In this document: positions 307 through 16,425 of the stretch, in pieces | How the letters are laid out: each line of letters opens with the position of its first letter | Position numbering within the stretch: the stretch's first letter is position 1 | UHGV virus genome: UHGV-1410950 | Direction: 5' to 3' (one strand) | Source: a virus | Length of the DNA: 64,000 bases | Position numbers and translations under genes: made by a program | Notes under the pieces: generated by a model | The model's input: the letters and a program-made list of their open reading frames with translations, nothing else | The model's database searches: none | Told to the model about the DNA's origin: nothing

Positions 307-333
307 AATAAAAAGCCCGGACGGTGCCGGGCT
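307..333 (-). terminator. rho-independent terminator after gene 341..595
   Basis: Hairpin agcccgg-acggtg-ccgggct preceded on + by an A5 run, which is a U-run on the minus transcript. Confidence 0.55.
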
Positions 334-340
334 GGAAGGT

Positions 341-595
341 TTACCACTTGAATTGTCGCTGCTCGTCCTCGCAGAGCCCGAACAGCTTATGCACGCCACA
401 GTAAACAGCCCCGGCGACGACGACCACCATCACAAGGCCCATCAGCATGGAACCGAAGCCAAGAGACGCAAGGCCAGAAGTAATGCCTGCTGCACTCAAT
501 CCTGAAACCTTCCCCAGAAGGCTGATCAGCAGGATAGGCGTTCCTGCCGCTGCTGCACCTGCTGTGACTTGTTTTGCCACTGTGTACCCGTTCAT
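341..595 (-). CDS. small Gly/Ala-rich membrane protein
   Basis: 84 aa with two hydrophobic glycine-zipper segments (GLASLGFGSMLMGLVMVVVVAGAV). ATG overlaps the upstream stop (TAATG). Confidence 0.5.
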   Translation of the reverse strand: MNGYTVAKQVTAGAAAAGTPILLISLLGKVSGLSAAGITSGLASLGFGSMLMGLVMVVVVAGAVYCGVHKLFGLCEDEQRQFKW

Positions 596-1059: not shown

Positions 1060-1088
1060 ATAATACGTCATGCGTGCCGTATGGTCAA
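1060..1088 (-). promoter_or_regulatory. sigma70-like promoter (TTGACC-17-TATTAT) with GCATGACG spacer element
   Basis: Minus strand reads TTGACCatacggcacgcatgacgTATTAT. Member of the recurring CGTA(A)TAAT promoter family. Leader contains CCAACCTGAGGAA before the ATG at 1023. Confidence 0.4.
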
Positions 1089-1948
1089 TCTTTTTTCTTA
1101 CCTAAATACGCGTCAAGCACCATTTGGTCGGTCTTCATGTTCATCAGCTCGCGCAGCTTGTCTTTCGGTGCTAGCTTGACGGCCTGCGTTTCCCAGCCCA
1201 TTGCCACCGGGGATCCTCCGACGCGCTTCGCCAGATACATGCGAGAAACGGACGTGGTGCGCTCAAAGTCACCCAGTACGCCAGTGATCTCGATCTGTAG
1301 CCCTGACTCCTCCCATGTCTCTTTTATGGCGTTCTGCTGGAGCGTGAGCCCCGGCTCAGTACCACCCTTCGGGAAAGTGTTCTGGTAGCCGCCGAAAGCG
1401 TTGGTCGGGCTGATAATCCACACGCGACCGTCAGGCTCCTCAATGATGACGCCGGACGCCGGACGCTTCCCGGCTGGTACCATTAACGGCTGCTCGGTCA
1501 TCTGTTTGGTACCCTTCACAAAAGCCCATCCCGCGTCGGTCTTCGGTGCTCCAGTCCACGGCGCGACCGGGACGCCGTTCAGCTCCTGCGGCGCAGCACC
1601 ATTAGGCGTGAAGGTGGCCACCTCGTTGCTTGCTGCCCACGTTGGCGCTTCGGTCGGCTTACTCGGATGGTTTACCACGACGCGATTGCCCTTCTCCCCT
1701 AAGCGTGGGTGATGGACAATTTTCGTCGGCATTCCTTTGCTGGCGGTCGTCCTGTGCGTGCCGTATGGCGTTGTGGGCAGCGTTGGTTTGCGGAAATAGG
1801 CTTTCTTGGCCTGAGGCTTCGCAGGCGCTTTGGGGGCCGCAGGCGCGTCAGGTTTGGCTGCTGCCTTCCCGTTGTCGTGCGGCTTCACCCAGACGCCATC
1901 GCTCCGGCGATAACCCTTCACCTGCGCTTTCAGGAAAAGTTTAGTCAT
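1085..1948 (-). CDS. Nudix hydrolase with Pro/Ala/Lys-rich N-terminal extension
   Basis: C-terminal Nudix box GGTEPGLTLQQNAIKETWEESGL (GX5EX7(K/R)EXXEEXGL). The first ~190 aa are low-complexity (PAK-rich). Start set at the internal ATG (MTKLFLK), which overlaps the stop of gene 1941..2423. Confidence 0.65.
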   Translation of the reverse strand: MTKLFLKAQVKGYRRSDGVWVKPHDNGKAAAKPDAPAAPKAPAKPQAKKAYFRKPTLPTTPYGTHRTTASKGMPTKIVHHPRLGEKGNRVVVNHPSKPTEAPTWAASNEVATFTPNGAAPQELNGVPVAPWTGAPKTDAGWAFVKGTKQMTEQPLMVPAGKRPASGVIIEEPDGRVWIISPTNAFGGYQNTFPKGGTEPGLTLQQNAIKETWEESGLQIEITGVLGDFERTTSVSRMYLAKRVGGSPVAMGWETQAVKLAPKDKLRELMNMKTDQMVLDAYLGKKKD

Positions 1949-2423
1949 TGCCTTCCACTCCCAGCATCCACTGCGCCATGGATTCGACGCTGTTCTGCAC
2001 GCGGGCGGCGATCTCAGCATCCTTTCCGCCCTTGTCAAATGCCTGGTAAATACTGATCGCAAAGCGGGCCATAGCGTGCGCGACGATCAGCGCGGGATCC
2101 GTTTCATCCTTCGCCAGCCCCTTCACGTTCTGAATCCAGCGCGGCAGCGCGAAGTCATTCCAGCCCGGCAGCACGCTAAAGCCTGCGGTGTTACCCACAA
2201 AGATGTTAGCGGTGTTCAGCGCCTGCGCACGGTCGGCCTCCAGCGCTTCTTTCTCAGTCATCTGGTTGGCCTGCACCTTAGCGATGCGTCCCACGATGTC
2301 CTTGGCGAAGTTATTCAGGATGGTGCGTGCCACGTTGATATCGCCCAGATAAACGCTGCCATCAGCAGCGTTCAGACCTTCGATAAACCACGTTGGATCA
2401 GTATGTCGGTTCAATTCAGCCAC
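1941..2423 (-). CDS. hypothetical protein
   Basis: 160-aa ORF immediately downstream of the giant ART gene, translationally coupled. Confidence 0.55.
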   Translation of the reverse strand: MAELNRHTDPTWFIEGLNAADGSVYLGDINVARTILNNFAKDIVGRIAKVQANQMTEKEALEADRAQALNTANIFVGNTAGFSVLPGWNDFALPRWIQNVKGLAKDETDPALIVAHAMARFAISIYQAFDKGGKDAEIAARVQNSVESMAQWMLGVEGND

Positions 2424-2432
2424 AGAGCCCCC

Positions 2433-5400
2433 TTATACGCTCGGCAGGATGATACATTCCACAACGGTCATGCCGCTGCCGCCAAAGCCATCGGCGTCCT
2501 TAGTCCCCGATTCGTTCACCTTAGTGATGAGGAGGCGGGTATTAGGTGGCAGGATAATTTCTTTTTCCCCGGTATGGTGCGAGATAGATCCACCACTCGG
2601 AAGCGAGCCAGCGCCCGCATAGATACCTTTTACGCCGGGGCCTGCTGTCATTTTGAGGTGAATATTACCACTCCACACGTCTGGACTGATAGACGTGGAC
2701 ATAATTGCAGGCTCCATGATGACCTTGCCTACCGACGCTTTCAGCTTGGAGAGATCACCGCTGCCCAGACTGAATTTGCGCCCGAACGTGGTACCCGGCG
2801 AAATTTCATGGCCCATACCAGACAGCGCCTGCGCTGCTGCTTTCGCTTCTGCGCTTGGGTTGCCCTTCCACAGTCCGCTGTTCATCTGCTTATAACTGCT
2901 ACCAGTATACGCCTGCACGGCCTGTTTTTGTGTCATCGGCAGCTTTTCCCACACTTCCTGTGCTGCTTTGGCATAAGTGTTTGTGGTCAGCGTGCCAGCC
3001 TTGAACGTGGTTTTAGTAATGCCAAGGTCTTCCGGCTCAACAATCCCCGGATGGCCCAGTACCAGCAGGTTCCCGATCTTGTCTGCATCGTTACCGCTCC
3101 AGTTTTCCGGCTTGTATTCTTCGTGCATCGAATACAGCGGGTGATCGCCGCCGATACGGAACTGCTCGGCTTCATGCCCGGCAAGCTGGCTCTTAATCTC
3201 GTTAATCGCCTGCATCGCGTAGCCTTTGATATGCTGCGATGGGTGATCGAGCACTGGCACCTGTCCGGTAACAGCTCCGGTGTCTTTGTCAAAGGTTGGC
3301 GCGGTCAGGCCGCGAATGGCTTCCGGGTCTCCGGTCAGCGCCGCAGAATAAATGGCCTGCGCCGCGTCGTGGTTCCCTTTGTTCAGGAACTCTTTGGAGG
3401 ACGGGCCGGATTTGCCAACGCCAGACCAGTTGAGGAAGTCAGGCGGGGTACTGATTTTCTCCGGCTTGAATTTCTGCATTTTGATGATCTTCTCGGCTTC
3501 CGGGTACTTCTCAGCCAGATACTCTTTGCGCTTGATGAGCGTTTCCACCAGCTCCTTTTTCGCCTTATCATCGCCCGGCCCATACTGGTTGACCATGTGC
3601 GCAATTTTGGCGTCGGAGATAGCCAGTACCTTGGAGACAGACGCGGCGATATCGGCCTCAGTCATGCCACCGAAGACGGCTGCGCTGTTCGCGTTCATCT
3701 TCGGATCCATCAGTGACTCCAGCTCCTTAACGACAGGGCCAAATTCTTTCTTCGCACCCTGCGCACGGAACATCAGCGAGCCGCCCGCATCGACGCGGTG
3801 AATGGTGCCGTCATCTTTCAGCTGCACGTTGTCTTTCGCCAGCCCCACGACATCCCAGTTACCCAGCCACGCATCAACGGCGAAGCCTTCCAGCATCCCC
3901 TTGGCCTTCGCCAGCGCTGCATGGGTTTTGGCCTTCTTGATGTTCTCCCACTTCGAGGCAATAGCCATTTTCCCGTCCTTGGTGACGATCATGGCGTCCT
4001 GCGCGGACAGCCCAGCGGCGCTATACAGTTTCGCTGCCAGCACCTCAGCCTTGGCGTGCTCCTCGTTATCCGGGAACTTCACATACCATTCCTGCCCATC
4101 GGCGTCCTTCATTTTCATGCCTTCATTCGAACCGCCTTGGTTGCCCCCGGTCACTGTCCACTCATCGACGCTGATCGGCTCTTTCTTCTTCCACTGGTAC
4201 TTTTTGACCTCCATCGGGCCATCAGCGGCAAGGCCATTCTCTGCCGGGTTGCTGGTCGCGGCGGTAGCCTTCATCAGCTGCGCGACGCCATTCATAGCAT
4301 AGGTGCCATTCACCTCAGGGTTATAACCTGACTTAACCTTTATCCCATTAGCCATCAGCATCATCGACGCATATTGCGCCAGCGCCTTTTTACCCGGCGC
4401 GGTCGGGCCATACTCCGTTGAGACCTTAATTTTCATCCCAAACTCGCCATAAATCAGCATCGAACCATCGGCTTTCTGCATGATGACGCCTTTGGTGCCG
4501 CCGCCTTTGGTCAGCTTGGCTTTGAGGTTATCTACATATTTCATGTAGTGATCCTGCTGCCAAGCGCTCAGGCCAAGCGCAGCGAAGTCAGGCGCTGGGA
4601 TCTCGTCAGGATTGGCCCTAACCCAGCGCCCGTTTTTCAGGATCAGCATCCCGTTGGCACCCGGCTTCATGTCGCCTTCTTTTGGGCCATCGTCGGCCTT
4701 CTTCGCATCTTCTTCGGCTACGGTATTCTTGATAGCCGTCAGGATCCCGTCGATAGCCACAGTGGCAAAATCGTTGATGGTCAGCACGCTTTTAATGGTG
4801 CTGACTGCATCAACCTTGTCCGGGTTGGCGTCGTAGTATTCCTTGCACGCCACCGATGCTTTGACGACCTTTTGCAGCCCGCTTTTGGTCTCCGCGATGC
4901 TCTTGATGTCGTCCAGCAGTTTCAGGTCAATCATTCCCAGATCCGGCGCGGCAGTTTCCGGTGCTGGCGCAGGCTCCTCAGCTCCGGTGATCTGATCCTG
5001 TACAAAGGTCATGGTGCTGATTGCGTAATCAGTCATGCTCATTTTGACCAGATCGGTTCCCTGATTCGCCATCAGCGCATACGCGGATTCTTTGACGCTG
5101 TTCAGCACAGCCTCTTTCATTTCCTTCGAGTCGGTGTACTTCGCCAGCATCGCCATCGCTGCCAGACCATCCAGTGCATCGGCATCCGCCATGCTATCGC
5201 CTTTGTAGCTGGCTTTCGGGATCCCCTGCGGGACGCCGTGCATGTTGATGCTGTCTTTCAGTGTGGACTGTAGGACAGGGATATGTGACACGTTATCGCC
5301 TGCGGCCTTCACGATGTCCTGATAGGTGGCAGGGTTGTCGCCTTTCTTCGCCACGTACTCCTGCACAGCCATCAGCGTTTCGAGGTTGTCTTTGGCGTTG

Positions 5401-8400
5401 TTGAAGACCAGCCCAAGGTCATACATGTTTTTCGGCTTTTCCGGCGCAGCGGTCAGCTTGCTGATAACCTCAGCCATGTACTCCTTGTACTTATTACCGT
5501 TGATCGTGGTGCCCGGCGTCGCGTTCTGCTCATATTTCATGGCCTCGATGAGCAGCTTTTTGCTGTTCTCATCCTTCGCCAGTGTTGCGGCGATGGCGTA
5601 GCCCTGAAAATCAGTTGCCTCGGTCGAGTAGAAACCAACATCCGGCTTAATTGGCAGATTGAACGGCTTCCCGTGCTTCTTAAAGTAATCCTGCCCGATT
5701 TCAGACGCGGCGTAGACGTGCCCGCTATTCATTTTCAGGATGTTGTCGATAACGGTCGTGTATGCGCCCTTATCGCCATTGTTGTCCTTGATGAATTCCA
5801 GACCGATAGCACTCGCATCATCGCCGTTAGCGCCAGCCAACGCCTGTTTGAGCGCCACAATCTCGCTGCCCGCGCTGCCATTTGCTGAGGTCTCAGGCAT
5901 GTCCTGCTGTAAGATCCAGTGCCCGTTATGGAAGACCAGCGTACCGCCTTTACCCTGCTTGGTATCACCCTCCTGCGGGCCATCCTCTACCAGCCACTTA
6001 TTGACCTCCTGCTGGTACAGTTTAACCTGCACAGCAGCTGGCTCGGAAAGGTGAAGCTCGCTCAGCTCATTAAAGTGCTTGGCGATCACATCAGGATCCG
6101 ATTCTTTGCCTTTGTGAATTTCTTCGGCAATGACGTTATAGAGGGTCTGCACTTTCGTGCCATAGGTTTTCACCGTATCGCTGGTTGGTGATACCAGAGG
6201 TTTTTCTGGCTCAGTGCCGTAAGTCTCGCTCCACCATTTCCCGTAGGCTTTCTTACCTGCGATAAAGAATTCATTTGCCAGCTCGTTAAAGCCATTGTCC
6301 TTCATGGCCTCAGCCATCGCCACCAGATGCGGCGCATCGTGACCGTTAGCCGTCATCCAGTCGCCAGCCATCGCATCGGCTTGCTTTTCGTCCTTGGCAT
6401 CTGTCAGCATGTCAAACGCACTTTCCCACAGAGCGTAATCGTTCAGGATCGCTTTCTTCTCCTGCTTACGCTCATGCTTAGTGGCAGTCTGCTCGGATTT
6501 CGCCGCAGCCTGAGACTTCTCGGCCCATGAATCGTACAGCTTCCCGACGCTGGACTCGGAGAAGGCCAGATCGCTACCGTAATAGGTAGACGCCTGCTCA
6601 ATGAATGCCTCGCCTTTTGTCTTCGCCCACTCGTTGAACTCAGCCACATCGGCAAAATCCGGCAGCTGCGGCTCAGGGGTTGGCGCACGCTCCTGCTTGA
6701 TCTGCGGTGGCGTCGGCAGGGATTTCACGGAGATATCGCCCAGCTCTTTCTTGGCGGCGGTCACGGCTTCGATGATCCACGCGGACAGATCAACCTTCTG
6801 GAAGGCATCAATCAGGTTCTGGTCATCACGGATCACTGTCACCATGTCGTTGATGTTGTCCACAGCCAGCGCCCAGTTACCCGCGTTGAGGTCATTCTGG
6901 ATGTCCTCACAGATGCCGTCGATAAACGCATCACCAGTCTGCGGAGGATTGGAGAAAGTCTTCACTCCCTCAGGCTTAGGCGCAGCAGCAAGGCCCAGAG
7001 ACTCCGCCAGATTGACCGCAGGCTCTTTGCCAGCCATTACCTGCTGGTAAACCTCATTCTGCGTGTTGGAGAAGCCGGAGATATGGCCCCAGTCGCCCTT
7101 CTCGTTAACCCACATACCAGAGCCCGGATTCTTCGGATCCGCGACGATGACTGCGCTGGTATTGGTCGGGTAAACGCCTGCGTCTGGAGTCGTGGACAGC
7201 ACGCCATTCCACATGTTCTTGATGACGTTTTGCTGCTTCTTGGTCAGGTGATTCGGCTTGCCCAGCTCCACCAGCTCGGTCGGGTACTCGCTATGGTGAT
7301 AGTCGGAAATGTAGCCCAGATTGTCCGGGGTTTTGGTGTTGCCACCAAAGCCGATCAGTTTCAGGTACTGGCCCGCTTGGAACGGTTTCGCCAGCGGCTC
7401 CCCCTTCTTGCTCATAGGCCATGCGGTCGCGTGCCCCATCAGCACTTTCAGGTACGGGTTGCCGTCCTTGTCATAGGTCTGGATGATCGAGCCAGCAGGC
7501 AGGTTAGGCATGTCAGAGATAGACAGCTTCTGGCCCTTTTTGAACTCACCAGCGACAGGCTGATCCTTGAGCGGCTCGCCAGTCTCCTGATTGTGCCAGC
7601 GACCGTCTTTGAAGACCTGCATCCCGTTTTTGCCCATGCGGGTTTCACCTTCCTGCGGGCCTTCCTCAGCCCGGACGGCTTTCTGCTGCTCAACCTCGGC
7701 GCTGGCCTTCTGATCCTTTTCTGCCTGGCTAAACTGGCCCAGCATTGGATGCACGGCGTCTTTGCCGATGACCACTTTGATGTCAGGGTAGCCCAGCGCT
7801 GCCAGCGCGTTATTCGCAGCCTTGGCGACTTTGAGCCCGTAGGTGTTTTTGCCGTAGGTCATCGCCAGAATGCCGTTGATGTTGCCTACTTCGCCAGCGG
7901 CCTTGATAGCGGCGATCTGCGCGTTGTAGCTCTTGGCATTCTTAATGTTCTCCGCGACGGCGAACTGGCTCCAGTCGATAGCTTCCATGGCCTTCTTCGA
8001 CACGGATGCTTTCGGGGCTGGCTTGCCTTCGGCGGTGTCCGGCTGCGCCGGGGAGGTAGCGATGATTTCAACCGCGCTCAATGGGCTCGGCTCCTCGGAC
8101 TGCACCAGCGGCTTATTCGGATTCTCACCCGTCAGCAGCGCCAGCTTTTGCCCGTAGAGGTTCAGCAGCTTTTTGCTGTTCGGGGTGATGCCCTTCCAGC
8201 TTTTCGCCTTGCTCTTGATAGCTTCCAGCTCCGCCAGACTGGTGGCGTCGATGACCTTCTGAGCCTGCGCCTCATACGCGGTGCGCACGCCAGTGGAGTT
8301 TTTGCCGGATTCAAATTTAGGCATGACGATTTCGCCTGGCTTCGGTGCTTCGGCAGCAGGTGTTGAGGCTTTCTGGACTTCTTCTTTAGCTGCGTTTTTT

Positions 8401-9188
8401 TTCTCAGGTGAAGGAGACGGCCCATCTTTTGGCATAATAAGGCTTAGTTTTTTTGCGCCACCCGGTTCAGTTTTAAAGTATCCAAACTGCGTACCGTAAT
8501 TCTCAATCGCGTGCAGCTGGTGCTGTTTTAAATCACCAATCTCAATAGTGATGACGTTATTTTTTACTTTGTATGCTTCAATCGGTGGCAGACCTAGGTA
8601 ACTCTCAATTCCAGAAACAATGGCTTGTTGTTTGGCTGTCAAATTACCTGTAGCTGGTTTTGTTGCTGCCTTTGCCTCTTGCGCTACGGCTTCAACGGCC
8701 TGCTCAGCCATCTGATCGACGGTCTCAGGCTCTCTCTCGTATGTGGCGATGGCAGGGTGCTCACCCGCTTTCTGGCCCGCGCTGACCTTCTCCTGCGAGC
8801 CCATTTGCTCCAGCAGATAGTTGGCAATCGCCACCAGCTTTTTACCGTGGGTGTTCACGCCATAGGATGATCCCAGAATCGCCGCGATATCGCCGTTGGC
8901 AGCGTGCTGCAACAGGTTCGGGACGTGCTTCTGGTTGAAATGCTTAATGTCTTTGTTGGTCGCCTCTTTTTCAGCAGGATAGAACAGCTGGCTCGACTCC
9001 TCCTGAGGCATGGCGTAAGGTTTATGGCCTTTGCCACCAGCTTTAGGGTGCGCGGCTTTCGGGGCGTTCTTGACGCCCTTCATGTCCGGCGTGGTTTTCT
9101 TCCAGCGCCCATTGATCAGAGCATAGCCCGCTTGGTGGGCGAATTTTTGATTAAGTGCTTTTGCGAGGACAAGCATGGTGGCCACCAT
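2433..9188 (-). CDS. giant (2251 aa) multidomain protein: C-terminal ADP-ribosyltransferase domain, internal repeats, kinase-like segment; candidate virion-delivered polyvalent effector
   Basis: The C-terminal ~185 aa carry the ART signature YTGSSYKQMN ... FGRKFS (Arg) ... MSTSIS (STS) ... GEKEIILP (ExE). Three ~30-aa repeats of the form GP(Q/K)EGD(T/M)K(Q/P)G.(N/G)G.L...NG(R/H)W. Two copies of a (I/N)xAILGSSYGVNTHGKKLV-like module near the N-terminus. A segment AWLGNWDVVGLAKDNVQL..IHRVDAGG resembles kinase catalytic and DFG-like loops. Confidence 0.8.
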   Translation of the reverse strand: MVATMLVLAKALNQKFAHQAGYALINGRWKKTTPDMKGVKNAPKAAHPKAGGKGHKPYAMPQEESSQLFYPAEKEATNKDIKHFNQKHVPNLLQHAANGDIAAILGSSYGVNTHGKKLVAIANYLLEQMGSQEKVSAGQKAGEHPAIATYEREPETVDQMAEQAVEAVAQEAKAATKPATGNLTAKQQAIVSGIESYLGLPPIEAYKVKNNVITIEIGDLKQHQLHAIENYGTQFGYFKTEPGGAKKLSLIMPKDGPSPSPEKKNAAKEEVQKASTPAAEAPKPGEIVMPKFESGKNSTGVRTAYEAQAQKVIDATSLAELEAIKSKAKSWKGITPNSKKLLNLYGQKLALLTGENPNKPLVQSEEPSPLSAVEIIATSPAQPDTAEGKPAPKASVSKKAMEAIDWSQFAVAENIKNAKSYNAQIAAIKAAGEVGNINGILAMTYGKNTYGLKVAKAANNALAALGYPDIKVVIGKDAVHPMLGQFSQAEKDQKASAEVEQQKAVRAEEGPQEGETRMGKNGMQVFKDGRWHNQETGEPLKDQPVAGEFKKGQKLSISDMPNLPAGSIIQTYDKDGNPYLKVLMGHATAWPMSKKGEPLAKPFQAGQYLKLIGFGGNTKTPDNLGYISDYHHSEYPTELVELGKPNHLTKKQQNVIKNMWNGVLSTTPDAGVYPTNTSAVIVADPKNPGSGMWVNEKGDWGHISGFSNTQNEVYQQVMAGKEPAVNLAESLGLAAAPKPEGVKTFSNPPQTGDAFIDGICEDIQNDLNAGNWALAVDNINDMVTVIRDDQNLIDAFQKVDLSAWIIEAVTAAKKELGDISVKSLPTPPQIKQERAPTPEPQLPDFADVAEFNEWAKTKGEAFIEQASTYYGSDLAFSESSVGKLYDSWAEKSQAAAKSEQTATKHERKQEKKAILNDYALWESAFDMLTDAKDEKQADAMAGDWMTANGHDAPHLVAMAEAMKDNGFNELANEFFIAGKKAYGKWWSETYGTEPEKPLVSPTSDTVKTYGTKVQTLYNVIAEEIHKGKESDPDVIAKHFNELSELHLSEPAAVQVKLYQQEVNKWLVEDGPQEGDTKQGKGGTLVFHNGHWILQQDMPETSANGSAGSEIVALKQALAGANGDDASAIGLEFIKDNNGDKGAYTTVIDNILKMNSGHVYAASEIGQDYFKKHGKPFNLPIKPDVGFYSTEATDFQGYAIAATLAKDENSKKLLIEAMKYEQNATPGTTINGNKYKEYMAEVISKLTAAPEKPKNMYDLGLVFNNAKDNLETLMAVQEYVAKKGDNPATYQDIVKAAGDNVSHIPVLQSTLKDSINMHGVPQGIPKASYKGDSMADADALDGLAAMAMLAKYTDSKEMKEAVLNSVKESAYALMANQGTDLVKMSMTDYAISTMTFVQDQITGAEEPAPAPETAAPDLGMIDLKLLDDIKSIAETKSGLQKVVKASVACKEYYDANPDKVDAVSTIKSVLTINDFATVAIDGILTAIKNTVAEEDAKKADDGPKEGDMKPGANGMLILKNGRWVRANPDEIPAPDFAALGLSAWQQDHYMKYVDNLKAKLTKGGGTKGVIMQKADGSMLIYGEFGMKIKVSTEYGPTAPGKKALAQYASMMLMANGIKVKSGYNPEVNGTYAMNGVAQLMKATAATSNPAENGLAADGPMEVKKYQWKKKEPISVDEWTVTGGNQGGSNEGMKMKDADGQEWYVKFPDNEEHAKAEVLAAKLYSAAGLSAQDAMIVTKDGKMAIASKWENIKKAKTHAALAKAKGMLEGFAVDAWLGNWDVVGLAKDNVQLKDDGTIHRVDAGGSLMFRAQGAKKEFGPVVKELESLMDPKMNANSAAVFGGMTEADIAASVSKVLAISDAKIAHMVNQYGPGDDKAKKELVETLIKRKEYLAEKYPEAEKIIKMQKFKPEKISTPPDFLNWSGVGKSGPSSKEFLNKGNHDAAQAIYSAALTGDPEAIRGLTAPTFDKDTGAVTGQVPVLDHPSQHIKGYAMQAINEIKSQLAGHEAEQFRIGGDHPLYSMHEEYKPENWSGNDADKIGNLLVLGHPGIVEPEDLGITKTTFKAGTLTTNTYAKAAQEVWEKLPMTQKQAVQAYTGSSYKQMNSGLWKGNPSAEAKAAAQALSGMGHEISPGTTFGRKFSLGSGDLSKLKASVGKVIMEPAIMSTSISPDVWSGNIHLKMTAGPGVKGIYAGAGSLPSGGSISHHTGEKEIILPPNTRLLITKVNESGTKDADGFGGSGMTVVECIILPSV

Positions 9189-9426: not shown

Positions 9427-9867
9427 TCAACGGCCTGCTGCCTTCTTGAGCTCCATGACGATGCAATGAAGCGTGTCCAGCTGTTCATCGGTCGCATGAC
9501 TCAGCAGCTGGCTCAGGCCAAATCCACCGCTCATTTCATTCTGGATAACGCTGCGCATCGCTGCCTTGCGCTGCTCGTAGGCAAAGTCAGCCTCGTCACG
9601 GTAAACGTCAAGCGCCGGATATCCACTGGTCTGCGGGACGTGGTTACGATTCCCCCAGTCCTTAATGGCAATGCGCTCCTGCCAGCATTCCGGCACGCTA
9701 TTGCTCTCTTTGGCGCGGTCAATGTCTGATTGCCGGGCGACGTAAAGCCATTTGGTTCCTTTGCGGACAACAATCATGATCCCGCGTGGAGGGCTGCGCC
9801 TATCGCGCGGGCCAATAAACAGGGTGTCGCCAGCTTTCAGGGCTTTCAGGTCGGTTTCTTTCAGCAT
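9427..9867 (-). CDS. hypothetical protein
   Basis: 146-aa ORF. N-terminal LKALKAGDTLFIGPRDR motif shared with the next gene. Confidence 0.55.
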   Translation of the reverse strand: MLKETDLKALKAGDTLFIGPRDRRSPPRGIMIVVRKGTKWLYVARQSDIDRAKESNSVPECWQERIAIKDWGNRNHVPQTSGYPALDVYRDEADFAYEQRKAAMRSVIQNEMSGGFGLSQLLSHATDEQLDTLHCIVMELKKAAGR

Positions 9868-10251: not shown

Positions 10252-10857
10252 TTATGCTGCGATACCGCGCTGCCCGGTGGCGATTGCCAGACGAGCCTTG
10301 CGGTCATAGTGCCCGATCAGGCCCATGGTGATCAGGATGCCAGCCGCCAGCGAAATAACGACGAGCAGAATGACCAGCTGCGCCTGCTTACTGTCTTTGC
10401 TGTCTCCGCCCTTGAATAGCTTGCTCACGCTATCCCACGCGCCTGACACTCCACCATTAGCCGCGTTGTAGATGTTGTGGGCGCTGGCGAATGTGTTCCA
10501 TGCTGCTGCCCCCATGTTGGCCCAGTTGCGTTCCCGGTATGCCGCGATCCAGCTATGCACGGTGATCAGCAGCCCTGTACCGATAGCCGGGATAATGATG
10601 CCCAGATACCAGAGGCTGATTGCCGCCTGCGCATATTTCTCGTCGAGGTGCCCGGTAAGGTACGCCGCGTATACTTCAATGAAGATAATCACGCTGGAAA
10701 AGCCGATTGCGGCCTGAATAGCTCCGCACCAGACCAGCACCCGGATCCAGCCGCCAAGGCGTTTGGACTCGGCCCACATCGTCCCGCAGGTCTTGCAGTT
10801 GAACCAGCTGATCAGCAGGTTGAGGGCCAGAATTCCCCACAGCATTAACATTCCCAT
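10252..10857 (-). CDS. polytopic inner-membrane protein
   Basis: At least four hydrophobic helices. Start at MGMLML with AAAGGAAAC RBS. Confidence 0.55.
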   Translation of the reverse strand: MGMLMLWGILALNLLISWFNCKTCGTMWAESKRLGGWIRVLVWCGAIQAAIGFSSVIIFIEVYAAYLTGHLDEKYAQAAISLWYLGIIIPAIGTGLLITVHSWIAAYRERNWANMGAAAWNTFASAHNIYNAANGGVSGAWDSVSKLFKGGDSKDSKQAQLVILLVVISLAAGILITMGLIGHYDRKARLAIATGQRGIAA

Positions 10858-10900
10858 TTTGTTTCCTTTGAAAAGTGCCGGGAGCCTCCCGGCGCGGTTG

Positions 10901-11119
10901 TTATTTATCTTTCTCGCGGTTGTAGCGCTCATGGGTTAGCAGATCCCATGTATCGCCATTATCCCGGCTCAGCAAACGCCAGCGGATGCCGACCTTTAAC
11001 GAGATACCACCGCTGCGCTTGAGGTGGGTTATTGCTGCCTCTCCGCGCTGCCACATTTCCAGAATCTGCCCGGCTTTTATCAGCGCCTGAGCGGGAATTC
11101 CTTTCATTGCCTTGAACAT
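10901..11119 (-). CDS. hypothetical protein
   Basis: 72-aa ORF. Its ATG directly follows the U-run of hairpin 11121-11150, with the SD (GGTGAGG) inside the stem. Confidence 0.45.
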   Translation of the reverse strand: MFKAMKGIPAQALIKAGQILEMWQRGEAAITHLKRSGGISLKVGIRWRLLSRDNGDTWDLLTHERYNREKDK

Positions 11120-11120
11120 A

Positions 11121-11150
11121 AAAAAAGCCTCACCTTGGGTTGGTGAGGCT
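11121..11150 (-). terminator. terminator-like hairpin + U7 immediately before the start codon
   Basis: agcctcacc-ttgggttg-gtgaggct with A7 on + (U7 on the minus transcript). The next ATG is at 11119. Confidence 0.5.
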
Positions 11151-11180
11151 ATATTATTACGTCATGGGTGACGTGTCAAC
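11151..11180 (-). promoter_or_regulatory. sigma70-like promoter TTGACA-17-TAATAT with palindromic CGTCA-N4-TGACG spacer
   Basis: Minus strand reads TTGACAcgtcacccatgacgtaaTAATAT. The -35 overlaps the stop of gene 11176..11541. Confidence 0.5.
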
Positions 11181-11542: not shown

Positions 11543-11851
11543 TCAGTACGTCCTGAATCCGTTGCAGTTGCGCAGGAAGTCCACAAAGTCGGCCTTAAAC
11601 TCTTTGGCCCGGTCGGCTTCGGAACTAAACCAGCCCGGCGTCGGCTCCCACGCTTCGATGATGTCAGCCATCTTGCCAGCAGTGCGCGGAGAGACCACCC
11701 ACGGGTCAGTCGTTTTACGCTGCTCTACCTGCGGCAGCTTCGCCATGCCCGGCAGGAATACCAGCGTCCACCACGTACCATTGGCAATGTCATAGCCCGG
11801 CAGACGGTTCTCGTCGCCTTTACGGCGGCGGTCTTCGATAGAAATGGTCAT
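11543..11851 (-). CDS. hypothetical protein
   Basis: 102-aa ORF in a coupled array. Confidence 0.5.
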   Translation of the reverse strand: MTISIEDRRRKGDENRLPGYDIANGTWWTLVFLPGMAKLPQVEQRKTTDPWVVSPRTAGKMADIIEAWEPTPGWFSSEADRAKEFKADFVDFLRNCNGFRTY

Positions 11852-13090: not shown

Positions 13091-14410
13091 TCACTTTGGG
13101 GCAGTGGTAGGCTTCGGCTCGACCGACGCTGGTTTGCCTGGCTGATTGCGGATCGTGGTAGCCAGCGCTCCCGGTCGCGTCGCAAAGTAGGTGTAACGCC
13201 ATTTCCCGGTCTGGGTCTCCCAGTATTTCACGCGCCAGCCTGAATCCTGATCTTCCCACGCCTCAGAGTAATACGCGGGCTTAGAATCGTTATCAGCATT
13301 GCGCTGCGCGATAGCTGCGGCCTCTCCGGTCGGCTTCCAGCCGTGCAGGTTGATCTCCTCACCTCCACGGTTCTGGATATGGCGCTGGTATTCAGCGCGA
13401 AGGGTGTCCTCAATTCTCGCCAGCTCAGCGGTTGCCTTGCAGCCTGCTGCCGTACAGTAGAAGTGTGTCAGCTGCTCGAAGCGGTCAAAGCCGTTGGTCA
13501 TGTTCAGGAACACTTTGGCCTTGCGGTCATACATCAGCTGGAGGTGTGGCTCCATCCATCCCTGCGTCGGGCGCTCTTTCATGTGAATGTGATACTCAGC
13601 CATTTCTGTCCGGTCGTGCGGGATCACATCCAGGCGGTACAGATAGCCCTGACGCCAGCAGCGCTTGTCTGTACGCAGGGTGCCATCGCTCAGCTCCTCC
13701 TCCGCGAGCTCCAGACGTTTCTCGCTGCCCGGCTTCACATCGGACAGGCCCAGCGAAACACGGCGGTGGACTTCCGCGATCATGCGCTGCGTCGTGTAAT
13801 GGGGTTGCAGGGTGATGACCAGACCGCTGATTTTGGCACGCAGCGGGGCCAGCGGGTGCAAGCGCTTCACCACGTCCTCAATGGTTTCATCGCGCTGCTG
13901 CAAATGCAGCTGCCCGGACTCCAGCGGCTCGTAATCATCAGGGGCGGCGTGATCCAGCGTCAGCTCCGGCTCCTCAACAGCGCGAGCCATCAGCTTTTTC
14001 AGGTCTGGGGTTGGGTTGGCTGGCGCTTCCAGCACTTCCTGAGGCACTACCGGACGCGTACCACGGCCCGCTAATTGCACCCAAGGCTCACCGCCAGAAG
14101 GGAATCGCTCATTCAGATTGAGCACGTACTCAGCATGGGCGAAGGCATCAGCCAGAGTCATCACCGGATCGATATGGATGGTCTTGCCGTCATAAATCAG
14201 GTCAATGGGTTGGTTTTCGGCGACGGCACGGCCTACGGCATTCAGGAGCGCTTCACCTTCTTCGGCATGGAGTTGAGGCACTTCTTGCTGCTGGGCTTTT
14301 ACCATTTCCAGACAGGACATAAATGACTCAGCTTTTGCCTCAGTAAACTTCTCATTGTGCAGGGCGTTAAATACAGCAACAGCGCGGGCAATAACGGATA
14401 ATTTCGACAT
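13091..14410 (-). CDS. hypothetical protein (439 aa)
   Basis: Long ORF with no recognised motifs. Confidence 0.6.
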   Translation of the reverse strand: MSKLSVIARAVAVFNALHNEKFTEAKAESFMSCLEMVKAQQQEVPQLHAEEGEALLNAVGRAVAENQPIDLIYDGKTIHIDPVMTLADAFAHAEYVLNLNERFPSGGEPWVQLAGRGTRPVVPQEVLEAPANPTPDLKKLMARAVEEPELTLDHAAPDDYEPLESGQLHLQQRDETIEDVVKRLHPLAPLRAKISGLVITLQPHYTTQRMIAEVHRRVSLGLSDVKPGSEKRLELAEEELSDGTLRTDKRCWRQGYLYRLDVIPHDRTEMAEYHIHMKERPTQGWMEPHLQLMYDRKAKVFLNMTNGFDRFEQLTHFYCTAAGCKATAELARIEDTLRAEYQRHIQNRGGEEINLHGWKPTGEAAAIAQRNADNDSKPAYYSEAWEDQDSGWRVKYWETQTGKWRYTYFATRPGALATTIRNQPGKPASVEPKPTTAPK

Positions 14411-14888: not shown

Positions 14889-14917
14889 AATTATTTACGG
14901 CATACGTGACGCATCAA
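14889..14917 (-). promoter_or_regulatory. sigma70-like promoter TTGATG-17-ATAATT with CGTCACGTATGCCG spacer
   Basis: Minus strand reads TTGATGcgtcacgtatgccgtaaATAATT. Overlaps the stop of the ParB-methylase gene. Confidence 0.4.
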
Positions 14918-16425
14918 AAGGCATCGTCATCTTCATCAGGATCCGGCAGGTGCCGATCCTCGGTCTCCTCCGGGAATTCCTCTCCGGTGTAGAAGTGGAC
15001 GGCCTTGCGCCCGGTAAGGTTCTGCCAGCGACGAATCGCCACATCTGCGAATCCCAGATCCAGCTCCATCACGCGTGCGCATACGCCCATTCGCTCGGCG
15101 GCCACCAGTGAAGTACCAGAGCCGGAGAAGGGATCCACCATGATGTCATTGAGGCGCACGGTGTTCTTCATCATGCGCTCCCACAGCTCCACGGGCTTCT
15201 GCGTCGGGTGCAGGTCGCTGCGGTCAGGACGCGGCACGCTGACCACGCTGCCCAGCATTGACTCCACCTTGGCGTCGCCTTCCACCCGCATGATGAGATC
15301 GCCGTACTGGAAATACCAGTTACCCTCGGCATCCTGTTTGAATGGGCTTGAGTCGCCAAACTCCGCGACGGTCGTTTGCTTCCTGCCACCGTGCCAGCGG
15401 TGCTTGGCACCCTTGCGCCAGCCGTACAGGATTGGTTCATGGATGCTTTGGAAGTCAGCCATGCCCAGTGTCATGCTGTTCTTCTTCCAGATGACATTCT
15501 GGGAGAAGTGGAAACCGACCTTTTCAAACGCCCAGCGCAGGCCATGGGCCATCTTGTCGGAGTGGCTGATATAGGTCACGCCGCCCGGCTGCATCGCGTC
15601 ATAGGCGCAGCTCAGGACATTGACGAGGAACTGATTAAAGTCCTCCTCGTTTTTCCAGTCGTTAGCGATCCCGCCAGTGCGCGAGCGCTCGCCTCCGATA
15701 GCCTTATCCATGCGCTTATTCTTCTTGCCCACATCGACGTTATACGGGGGATCGGTCAGCATCATGTTGGCCTTCTCGCCCTGCATCAGCGCCAGCCAGC
15801 TTTCCGGCTGCTCAGCATCACCCACGTACAGGCGATGAGCGCCCAGCACCCACAGGTCGCCCGGACGGCTCTTTGGCTCATCAGGCAGCGGTGGGGCATC
15901 ATCAGGATCGCTGTCACCACCTCCTCCCTCCATCGGCGGCAGCTTCATGATCTCGTCCAGCTGCTCAGGGTCGAAGCCGATAACATCCAGATCGTAGTCC
16001 AGATCAGCCAGGGCATTCATTTCGATGCGCAGCATGTCCATGTTCCACTCGGACGCCCGGCCCAGCTGGTTATCCGCGATGATGTACGCGCGGCGCTTAG
16101 CCTCATCCCAGCCAGTGCAGTCCAGCGTCGGCACCATGCCAATAGGGATCGGCGTGCCATCCGGGAAAGCAATTTGCTTGCCCTCGCTGTACAGCTTCAT
16201 CGCTGCCAGCTGGCGTCCATGGCCTGCCACAATCCCTTGCTCATCGACGAGGATGGCATTAGTCCACCCGAATTCAAGCATCGACGCGGCGACCTTCTGG
16301 ACGTGTGCCGGGCTATGGTCATTTGAGTTGTTCACGTAGGGGATGAGGCTATCAACCGGGCGCAGCCGGATCATCGGGGGGATCACGTCCAGCCCCAGCA
16401 TCTTGTTAAAATCTTTATCAGCCAC
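14914..16425 (-). CDS. ParB-like nuclease domain fused to a DNA N6-adenine/N4-cytosine methyltransferase
   Basis: N-terminal ParB/Srx motif (GHGRQLAAMKL). Methyltransferase motif IV DPPY precedes motif I FSGSGTS, the beta-class order. Confidence 0.85.
   Translation of the reverse strand: MADKDFNKMLGLDVIPPMIRLRPVDSLIPYVNNSNDHSPAHVQKVAASMLEFGWTNAILVDEQGIVAGHGRQLAAMKLYSEGKQIAFPDGTPIPIGMVPTLDCTGWDEAKRRAYIIADNQLGRASEWNMDMLRIEMNALADLDYDLDVIGFDPEQLDEIMKLPPMEGGGGDSDPDDAPPLPDEPKSRPGDLWVLGAHRLYVGDAEQPESWLALMQGEKANMMLTDPPYNVDVGKKNKRMDKAIGGERSRTGGIANDWKNEEDFNQFLVNVLSCAYDAMQPGGVTYISHSDKMAHGLRWAFEKVGFHFSQNVIWKKNSMTLGMADFQSIHEPILYGWRKGAKHRWHGGRKQTTVAEFGDSSPFKQDAEGNWYFQYGDLIMRVEGDAKVESMLGSVVSVPRPDRSDLHPTQKPVELWERMMKNTVRLNDIMVDPFSGSGTSLVAAERMGVCARVMELDLGFADVAIRRWQNLTGRKAVHFYTGEEFPEETEDRHLPDPDEDDDAF

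Follow-up and report, generated by a model that had tools for sequence, protein, structure and literature searches.

The giant gene on the minus strand of the stretch analysed here, 64,000 nucleotides of the UHGV virus genome UHGV-1410950 (hereafter, the window), appears, on balance, to encode a modular effector that is carried in the virion, made late in infection and injected with the DNA to modify host proteins. By its sequence, the C-terminus of this 245-kDa protein is an ADP-ribosyltransferase (ART), and the segment upstream of it is, as modelled, an atypical protein kinase; ahead of these lie a conserved N-terminal domain and a highly variable middle. The reading as a virion-carried effector is supported by fusions of the kinase domain to the MuF head protein, by relatives encoded among portal and prohead protease genes, by the particle-associated label that a homologue bears in the record of Yersinia phage fHe-Yen8-01, and by the contiguity of the gene cluster with tail-fibre and large terminase (TerL) genes. 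From such evidence, we infer packaging and injection, the enzymatic activities, their targets and the role of the N-terminus. An earlier note on this DNA had proposed a packaged polyvalent protein; module exchange, the MuF and portal links and the fHe-Yen8-01 label all speak for that proposal, in which we have moderate confidence.

The gene is the uninterrupted open reading frame (ORF) of 2251 codons, at 2433..9188 on the minus strand, that the earlier note had described. The true start is probably Met5 (ATG at 9176), giving a protein of 2247 residues, because a GGTGG Shine-Dalgarno sequence lies 5 nt upstream of this codon, whereas the first ATG has none, and because the relatives are annotated from the equivalent position. 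Over its full length, the gene is 97% identical in DNA sequence to its counterpart in Escherichia phage ECML-606-1 (95 kb) and 96% identical to that in Enterobacter phage phiT5282EW (95.5 kb); in both genomes, it is labelled merely 'hypothetical protein', as are its neighbours. Pfam, PHROG and NCBIfam scans of the whole protein detected the ART alone, and no kinase, MuF or LPD domain. The sole recognisable catalytic domains lie in the last 580 residues, and no further enzyme was found.

Catalytic domains at the C-terminus

The catalytic end of the protein comprises the following features, among them every motif that the earlier note had quoted, each where it had been placed:

3489..4175, minus strand: HipA/CtkA/PI3-4K-type atypical protein-kinase domain as modelled, residues about 1672-1900
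residues 1773-1790: AWLGNWDVVGLAKDNVQL
residues 1796-1804: IHRVDAGGS
3012..3413, minus strand: 'mid' module, residues 1926-2059 (~135 residues), always between kinase and ART
2436..3011, minus strand: predicted R-S-E ART domain, residues 2060-2251, with PF03496, PHROG 802 and SpvB/VsdC/Vip2 matches and conserved catalytic residues
residues 2094-2103: YTGSSYKQMN
residues 2135-2140: FGRKFS
residues 2163-2168: MSTSIS
residues 2207-2214: GEKEIILP

The C-terminal domain matches Pfam PF03496 (ADPrib_exo_Tox) at 36.2 bits, above the curated cut-off of 23.4, over residues 2146-2227, and PHROG 802 ('Alt-like RNA polymerase ADP-ribosyltransferase') over residues 2070-2176 only (E 3.2e-5). A phmmer search of the PDB with the giant protein retrieved ARTs only, namely, SpvB, VsdC and Lmo0066, with the STS and GExE..PPNT motifs aligned residue-for-residue to those of SpvB. 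A family profile built from 35 full-length members reached Vip2 (E 7e-9) and also C3larvin, Vis, VsdC, SpvB, CdtA and iota Ia, over 175-190 residues. The catalytic motifs come in the correct order (Arg, Ser-Thr-Ser, Glu-x-Glu), and of 68 homologues, at least 95% retain R2137, S2166 (of S-T-S 2164-2166), E2208 and E2210. The ART signature that had been read from the letters alone is thereby borne out, and the comparison of the C-terminus with ART toxins agrees with it at the sequence level. From these matches, we infer an ART fold for residues 2060-2251; judged by sequence, the C-terminus of the giant protein is an R-S-E ART of the C3/VIP2/SpvB/Alt type. In the R-S-E clade, E-x-E, as opposed to Q-x-E, goes with arginine as the acceptor; the giant protein's ART is of the ExE type and is predicted to be arginine-specific.

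The kinase-like segment noticed earlier likewise holds up, as an atypical kinase, on the strength of invariant catalytic residues and structure comparison. Residues 1640-1925 were aligned with 21 diverse homologous segments (22 sequences in total, 28-61% identity). Invariant throughout are G1686 in the glycine loop, K1704, E1715, N1777, D1779, D1786, N1787, D1800 and G1802, which supply the ATP-binding Lys, helix-C Glu, catalytic loop and metal-binding Asp that mark a protein kinase, and the catalytic loop aligns with 'FVADTLLGNFD' of CtkA. The AlphaFold2 model computed from this alignment is confident (predicted local distance difference test score, pLDDT, 87; predicted template modelling score, pTM, 0.81), and comparison of its fold places it closest to HipA/CtkA. 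Sequence searches, for their part, stayed below threshold: there was no Pfam kinase match in the giant protein at E<=1; HipA_C (PF07804) and HipA_2 (PF20613) gave no significant match in it, and in relatives reached 26.5 bits (cut-off 27) and 23.6 bits (cut-off 30.5), respectively; and the kinase profile run against the PDB returned CtkA alone, with an E of 0.22 that is not significant. Identification as a kinase hence depends on structure comparison, and for the same reason, the domain is best regarded as a separate family inside the HipA/CtkA/PI3-4-kinase-like superfamily. With HipA, CtkA and HipT, it shares the glycine-rich loop, the Lys, the Glu, the D-x-W-L-x-N-x-D...D-N loop and the Mg-binding Asp; it differs from them in a catalytic loop that is 3 residues longer, in lacking the HipA N-terminal domain and a HipB-type antitoxin, and in its occurrence inside giant phage proteins, which have up to 5 copies of it. 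According to the model, then, the segment upstream of the ART is an atypical HipA/CtkA/PI3-4K-type kinase with an intact active site.

The first homologue search yielded 98 proteins with three conserved blocks, the N-terminal domain, the kinase and the mid-ART region; a local kinase hidden Markov model (HMM) finds the kinase in 97 of them. An exhaustive profile search with the kinase alignment extended the family to 6151 cluster representatives (50% identity) at E<=1e-3, 3943 of these at E<=1e-30. The kinase-family proteins are all large (650-7000 residues), and some have two to five kinase copies; among the 132 new representatives listed, 111 have the ART, 101 the mid module and 64 the N-terminal domain. 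The mid module, also present in 92 of the 98 first-round homologues, has conserved SS, N, N, G-D and HPS positions and weakly resembles the N-terminal helical motif (hhalign E 5e-4, probability 32%). That it might be a degenerate second ART, as in Vip2, was rejected, hhalign having shown no similarity.

Conserved N-terminus, repeated hairpins and exchangeable middle

The remainder of the giant protein, from its N-terminus to the kinase, contains the following features:

8739..9176, minus strand: conserved N-terminal domain, residues 5-150, lineage-specific, a candidate virion-incorporation module
9102..9128, minus strand: GYALINGRW beta-hairpin, a truncated copy of the GRW repeat, residues 21-29
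8406..8648, minus strand: small alpha/beta insert, residues 181-261
7755..8036, minus strand: second copy of the N-terminal helical module, residues 385-478
7596..7661, minus strand: GRW repeat 1, GPQEGETRMGKNGMQVFKDGRW, residues 510-531
6984..7523, minus strand: alpha/beta domain of unassigned function, residues 556-735
5916..5981, minus strand: GRW repeat 2, GPQEGDTKQGKGGTLVFHNGHW, residues 1070-1091
5085..5861, minus strand: variable helical middle region, with a weak internal duplication
4623..4688, minus strand: GRW repeat 3, GPKEGDMKPGANGMLILKNGRW, residues 1501-1522, the copy found ahead of the kinase across the whole family

The N-terminal domain, with its many invariant positions, is present in 92 of the 98 first-round homologues. 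A tblastn search recovers it only from 8 phages, all of the Dolphis/Mecenats66/fHe-Yen8-01 type (ECML-606-1, phiT5282EW, Yersinia fHe-Yen8-01, Pseudomonas Dolphis, Jeremy, Touem01, Aeromonas ST4 and Morganella Mecenats66). The kinase, by contrast, is spread over 6151 clusters, and we therefore consider the N-terminus to be a lineage-specific module. An HMM of the domain matches residues 3-149 (E 1e-76) and again residues 385-478 (E 2.2e-14), and in many homologues, query residues 385-478 cross-match subject residues 27-131; the duplication of an N-terminal module, suspected earlier, is thus a feature of the whole family.

The same is true of the three GPxEGD...NG(R/H)W repeats described in the earlier note, which were found at residues 510-531, 1070-1091 and 1501-1522 and which share a fixed 22-residue core that occurs 270 times in 230 family proteins, with one copy typically ~100 residues ahead of the kinase. 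In the structure model, repeat 1 forms a small three-strand beta meander (E516-519, E522-527, E530-533), and the truncated N-terminal copy is modelled with strands E22-25 and E28-31. G510 and W531 of repeat 1, as well as G21 and W29 of the truncated copy, are invariant in the alignment of 35 homologues.

Between these elements, the protein is highly plastic. The relatives range from 1250 to 2930 residues, and their middle is the least conserved part, freely exchanged or deleted, with WGR, ART-PolyVal (PF18760), InPase+LPD1, LPD38 or NUDIX domains in its place; one relative, P0091, keeps the N-terminal 465 residues and has InPase and LPD1 instead of the kinase and ART. This exchange of middle modules, together with the swap in P0091, is the modularity typical of polyvalent proteins. 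The helical middle region of the giant protein is common to only ~20 of the 98 homologues, and profile-profile comparison found the middle regions to be mutually unrelated, except for one weak internal duplication (residues 1110-1220 against 1255-1368; hhalign self-comparison, probability 63%, E 7e-5). At a finer scale, the insert at residues 181-261 is shared with P0001 and absent in the next-closest homologues P0002-P0010, which are 78-98% identical elsewhere, and so the ~80-residue insert points to a recent gain or loss of a small module.

The characterised members of the clade are myoviruses of 86-96 kb (Mecenats66, PMC9503643), and Touem01, which encodes an integrase and ParA, is predicted to be temperate (PMC11256456). 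The phage represented by the window is a contractile-tailed, probably temperate member of the Dolphis/Mecenats66/fHe-Yen8-01 group, ~95 kb in length. Assemblies of Salmonella and E. coli isolates contain dozens of homologues (P0011-P0047) on contigs of 90-102 kb, with synteny kept. The group may persist as an episome or prophage; among the PLSDB plasmids, the gene is in no enterobacterial record, and the status of the clade as phage-plasmids finds no support in that collection.

Links to the virion and competing explanations

Downstream of the giant gene and in its wider vicinity, four features bear on how its product might be deployed:

1941..2423, minus strand: 160-aa ORF, translationally coupled to the giant gene (9-nt gap, GGGGG Shine-Dalgarno), syntenic in all relatives
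1085..1948, minus strand: 287-aa Nudix protein (PF00293 at 45.2 bits), its start overlapping the stop of the 160-aa ORF (ATGA)
314..333, minus strand: terminator-like hairpin, the first strong hairpin after the giant gene, just ahead of the tail-fibre gene; indicative only
11543..11851, minus strand: 102-aa ORF with the motif PGYDIANGTWW (residues 19-27), a possible co-packaged protein

The earlier note had placed the giant gene at the end of a coupled early operon, followed by a Nudix enzyme. The coupling is real and the Nudix protein is there, but as the second gene downstream, after the 160-aa ORF (for which Pfam, PHROG and NCBIfam gave no match), and the giant gene is not the last: four genes follow it (the 160-aa ORF, the Nudix gene and two small ORFs), and then come the terminator-like hairpin and the tail-fibre gene. 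Nor is 'early' supported, because the tail-fibre and TerL genes continue the cluster in the same direction, TerL being the next gene after the tail-fibre gene in the complete relatives, and because a packaged protein must be made late. The gene order is conserved in Dolphis, in fHe-Yen8-01 and in the 100.9-kb contig ABNHAV010000017.1 of Salmonella enterica GCA_032323975.1.

More remote members of the family provide the links to the head. In some, the kinase is combined with different arginine-type ARTs (PF01129, DRAT), or MuF stands at the start of the protein: the MuF head protein is fused to the kinase domain in P0097, P0098 and P0100, the last of which consists of MuF, three kinases and an ART. 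In a Pseudomonas juntendi phage-plasmid, a Nudix-kinase-ART gene stands after the portal and MuF genes and ahead of the genes for prohead protease and major capsid protein; Gordonia phage Forza has the kinase-family gp78 after the portal and the ART gp80 before the maturation (prohead) protease. Residues 79-285 of the stand-alone Nudix protein in the window are 50-53% identical to the N-terminal Nudix domain of the Nudix-kinase-mid-ART fusions P0092, P0093 and the P. juntendi plasmid protein, which argues for a functional linkage of the three enzymes. Taken together, the fusions and gene neighbourhoods tie the kinase, the ART and the Nudix to one another and all three to the head.

Within the clade itself, the one experimental hint of packaging is an annotation: the GenBank record of fHe-Yen8-01, on which no paper was found, labels the homologue of the giant protein (52% identical over the full length and 66.5% over the C-terminal 589 residues) 'ADP-ribosyltransferase toxin; phage particle associated protein', in the depositors' words. 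Also flagged as particle-associated there are the homologues of the 160-aa protein (gp130), the Nudix protein, a ParB-methyltransferase and the 102-aa protein (gp123). We take these labels as suggestive, though not stringent, evidence that the giant-protein family is associated with the particle.

A short sequence motif could account for such association. G[YF]xxx[ND]GxW occurs 3 times among the 402 ORFs of at least 50 residues in the window, against 0.03 expected from shuffles, a comparison in which two of the three carriers had defined the pattern and the third alone is an independent match. All three copies lie within the first 20-30 residues of their proteins, the giant protein, the Nudix protein and the 102-aa ORF, and the fHe-Yen8-01 homologues of all three are flagged as particle-associated. 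The N-terminal hairpin motif of the Nudix protein, VKGYRRSDGVW, is conserved in the Nudix proteins of fHe-Yen8-01, Dolphis and the Salmonella contig. We hypothesise that this hairpin is a previously unrecognised virion-targeting signal that is reiterated inside the giant protein.

A plausible course of events can then be outlined. The giant protein would be produced with the late genes and packaged, its lineage-specific N-terminal domain (residues 5-150, repeated at 385-478) and GRW hairpins serving for incorporation into the particle and its variable, non-enzymatic middle acting as a spacer or adaptor. It would be released into the cell with the DNA, alongside the co-transcribed 160-aa protein and Nudix hydrolase. 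There, the HipA/CtkA-type kinase would phosphorylate host proteins on Ser/Thr with ATP, the ART would transfer ADP-ribose from NAD+ onto arginine of host proteins, and the co-delivered Nudix might act on molecules derived from NAD+ or ADP-ribose, or on caps. In the manner of T4 Alt, the host, be it through its transcription, translation or defence proteins, would thereby be reprogrammed or disarmed before phage gene expression.

A number of observations weigh against this scenario. The particle-associated label denotes detection by liquid chromatography with tandem mass spectrometry (LC-MS/MS) in a phage preparation and covers polymerase, helicase and ligase, too (PMC7316996, which we take to come from the same Finnish Yersinia-phage group as the fHe-Yen8-01 depositors), and in the fHe-Yen8-01 record, TerL is flagged as well. 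Pfam matched neither MuF (PF04233) nor an LPD domain in the giant protein. A fold search with the N-terminal 740 residues gave no informative match, and the role that we assign to this region is purely conjectural. Passage through the tail would require a 245-kDa protein to be unfolded or cleaved. Alt/VIP2-type ARTs are reported to be absent from genuine polyvalent proteins (PMC5512222), and the giant protein's ART is of that type. In promoter and terminator scans of the region, counts did not exceed the shuffled expectation, which leaves the timing of expression unreadable. Finally, for this particular phage, the case is built from relatives and sequence.

Some of these points would fit a host-takeover or anti-defence enzyme that is never injected but is made in a cell already infected and acts there late, comparable to T4 ModA/ModB or the T7 gp0.7 kinase, its detection in particles of the related phage being carry-over from the lysate. 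In favour of such an enzyme, the depositing laboratory's particle lists include replication enzymes, TerL is flagged in the fHe-Yen8-01 record, neither MuF nor another known head-anchoring domain was found, and many small ORFs of early appearance precede the giant gene in a row on its strand. We nevertheless regard this explanation as unlikely. The homologues of two downstream genes are flagged along with that of the giant protein; remote kinase-ART relatives are fused to MuF or encoded between portal and protease; the cluster adjoins the tail-fibre and TerL genes; and the N-terminal domain is lineage-specific and more conserved than the enzymes, as a particle-binding module would be.

A bolder version of the virion-carried effector would have the Nudix, the HipA-like kinase and the R-S-E ART form a conserved, head-delivered three-enzyme system with chemically coupled, not independent, activities; in addition, the hairpin could be a virion-targeting signal. 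For instance, ADP-ribosylation might be followed by Nudix cleavage to an irreversible phosphoribosyl mark, with the kinase priming or gating the reaction. Legionella SidE, which combines a mono-ADP-ribosyltransferase with a phosphodiesterase, and SidJ, which has a kinase fold, provide a loose analogy. We consider this version quite improbable.

The giant protein could also serve mainly to build the particle or the ejection machinery (as an internal core, ejectosome or length-determining protein), with the enzymes as accessory passengers. Its great length, its long helical and linker-rich regions, the beta-hairpin motifs repeated at regular intervals, the highly conserved N-terminus and the proximity of the gene to tail-fibre genes would all suit such a role. 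However, the middle is the part that is exchanged or deleted among relatives, unlike a ruler or scaffold; the catalytic domains are, besides the N-terminus, the most conserved parts and have intact active sites; and separate tail genes are present in the window and in the relatives. A primarily structural role is thus highly unlikely, and a tape-measure or scaffold function in particular was judged so in view of the middle, which varies most and is conserved least.

The least probable explanation, and one to which we attach very little weight, is that of a lysogenic-conversion toxin directed at eukaryotic cells or competing bacteria through SpvB/VIP2-like actin ADP-ribosylation and a CtkA-like pro-inflammatory kinase: the closest solved relatives (SpvB, VsdC, Vip2, iota, CtkA) do act on eukaryotic targets, relatives sit on ~100-kb contigs in Salmonella and E. 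coli isolate assemblies, and the clade is predicted to be temperate (integrase and ParA in Touem01), but a signal peptide was not detected, nor was any secretion or translocation domain, the kinase-ART unit also occurs in elements of soil Pseudomonas putida, P. syringae, Gordonia and Streptomyces, and the gene is embedded in a virion-gene region and coupled to genes whose homologues are flagged as particle-associated.

Relation to known systems and flanking genes

T4 Alt, a head-packaged and injected ADP-ribosyltransferase of about 76 kDa, is the obvious point of comparison for a virion-carried effector. The giant protein resembles it in having an R-S-E ART with ExE, in belonging to a contractile-tailed phage and in its predicted delivery with the DNA; it differs in size (~245 kDa), in its many modules, in the extra kinase and in its N-terminus, which shows no sign of the T4-type capsid-targeting sequence. 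A tblastn search with the giant protein's ART domain matched no T4-like phage, that is, BLAST sees no relation to Alt, and the genomic context differs. P1 DarB, to which the earlier note had also pointed, is a methyltransferase-helicase, unlike the giant protein. Among toxins, SpvB, VsdC, Vip2, iota Ia and C3larvin are the closest solved sequences to the giant protein's ART; SpvB-type toxins, however, are secreted or translocated and act on eukaryotic actin or Rho, whereas the giant protein is a phage protein without a translocation component and has relatives in phages of soil bacteria.

With the polyvalent proteins, the giant protein shares its size, the union of disparate enzymes (kinase and ART), the shuffled modules and the predicted packaging and early action (PMC5512222). 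The vocabulary typical of that class (ART-PolyVal, InPase, LPD1, LPD38, NUDIX) is found in homologues that share its N-terminus or kinase, and none of it in the giant protein itself. Joining disparate enzymes in a single phage polypeptide and having modules in common with bona fide polyvalent proteins, the giant protein falls under the operational definition of the class. The kinases described in polyvalent proteins belong to a C-lobe-less Ser/Thr/Tyr clade from phages of Verrucomicrobia and Bacteroidetes (PMC5512222), whereas that of the giant protein is HipA/CtkA-like. The MuF polymorphic toxins are similar in their layout, a conserved N-terminal virion module followed by variable C-terminal effectors that are often ARTs (PMC5576092), and different in that the giant protein has a lineage-specific N-terminal domain in place of MuF; kinases are unmentioned among the MuF toxin domains in that work (Jamet et al. 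2017). The available portion of a 2022 survey of viral systems based on NAD+ and ADP-ribose (PMC9503650) covers Alt/VIP2 ARTs fused to MuF, packaged Nudix enzymes and their enrichment in myoviruses, and in that portion, no kinase partner for viral ARTs is mentioned.

Packaged ARTs and polyvalent proteins thus have precedent in the literature (PMC5512222, PMC9503650), and the concept of a packaged effector is already known. What appears to be new is a large, apparently unnamed and experimentally untouched unit, kinase-mid-ART, with or without Nudix. A literature search of incomplete coverage found no account of phage proteins that join a HipA-like kinase to an ART, and none of the giant-protein family, in keeping with the remark in the earlier note that the domain combination was not one recognised as described. 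Packaged, co-injected enzymes are the first that a phage deploys, and very few of them are known in any detail, examples being T4 Alt, the P1 Dar proteins and the N4 virion RNA polymerase. The kinase of the kinase-mid-ART unit, which no Pfam model detects, is spread over at least 6151 protein clusters at 50% identity, and the unit turns up time and again in combination with arginine-type ARTs from several families, with Nudix and with MuF. ECML-606-1 and phiT5282EW, phages of E. coli and Enterobacter, offer tractable models in which to study the targets of a virion-borne kinase and ART in the first minute of infection, a possible action against NAD+-based or other defences, and the loading and ejection of a 245-kDa cargo; in both of these closest genomes, the 'hypothetical protein' entries can now be corrected.

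The genes that surround the cluster deserve a brief account:

14914-16425, minus strand: ParB-like nuclease/partition and DNA methyltransferase fusion, 503 aa (PHROG 498, E 1e-129; PHROG 620)
13091-14410, minus strand: 439-aa ORF, its N-terminus resembling fHe-Yen8-01 gp119, an unannotated 'particle associated protein'
11126-11179, minus strand: sigma-70-like promoter match TTGACA-17-TAATAT (10/12), abutting a 9-bp-stem hairpin with T-runs on both strands
10252-10932, minus strand: hydrophobic 226-aa protein flanking the putative effector operon (PHROG 37671, unassigned function)
9427-9867, minus strand: 146-aa ORF directly upstream of the giant gene, matching PF24203 (phage ProQ C-terminal-like) at 26.1 bits against a cut-off of 27
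341-595, minus strand: hydrophobic 84-aa protein flanking the putative effector operon

The ParB-methyltransferase fusion, the homologue of which is flagged as particle-associated in fHe-Yen8-01, is reminiscent of the P1 Dar anti-restriction proteins. The 439-aa ORF had no match in Pfam, PHROG or NCBIfam. The 84-aa and 226-aa proteins, both strongly hydrophobic, look like membrane proteins, either holin-like or superinfection-related, and the 146-aa ORF is a possible RNA-binding protein. The promoter match and the hairpin at 11126-11179 may mark the boundary of the giant-gene transcription unit. In the Salmonella contig, the genes upstream of the giant gene include several DNA methyltransferases and a 120-aa gene (1798-2160) with a weak Pfam match to the Acb2/Tad1 hairpin, an arrangement that suggests an anti-defence island beside the effector operon.

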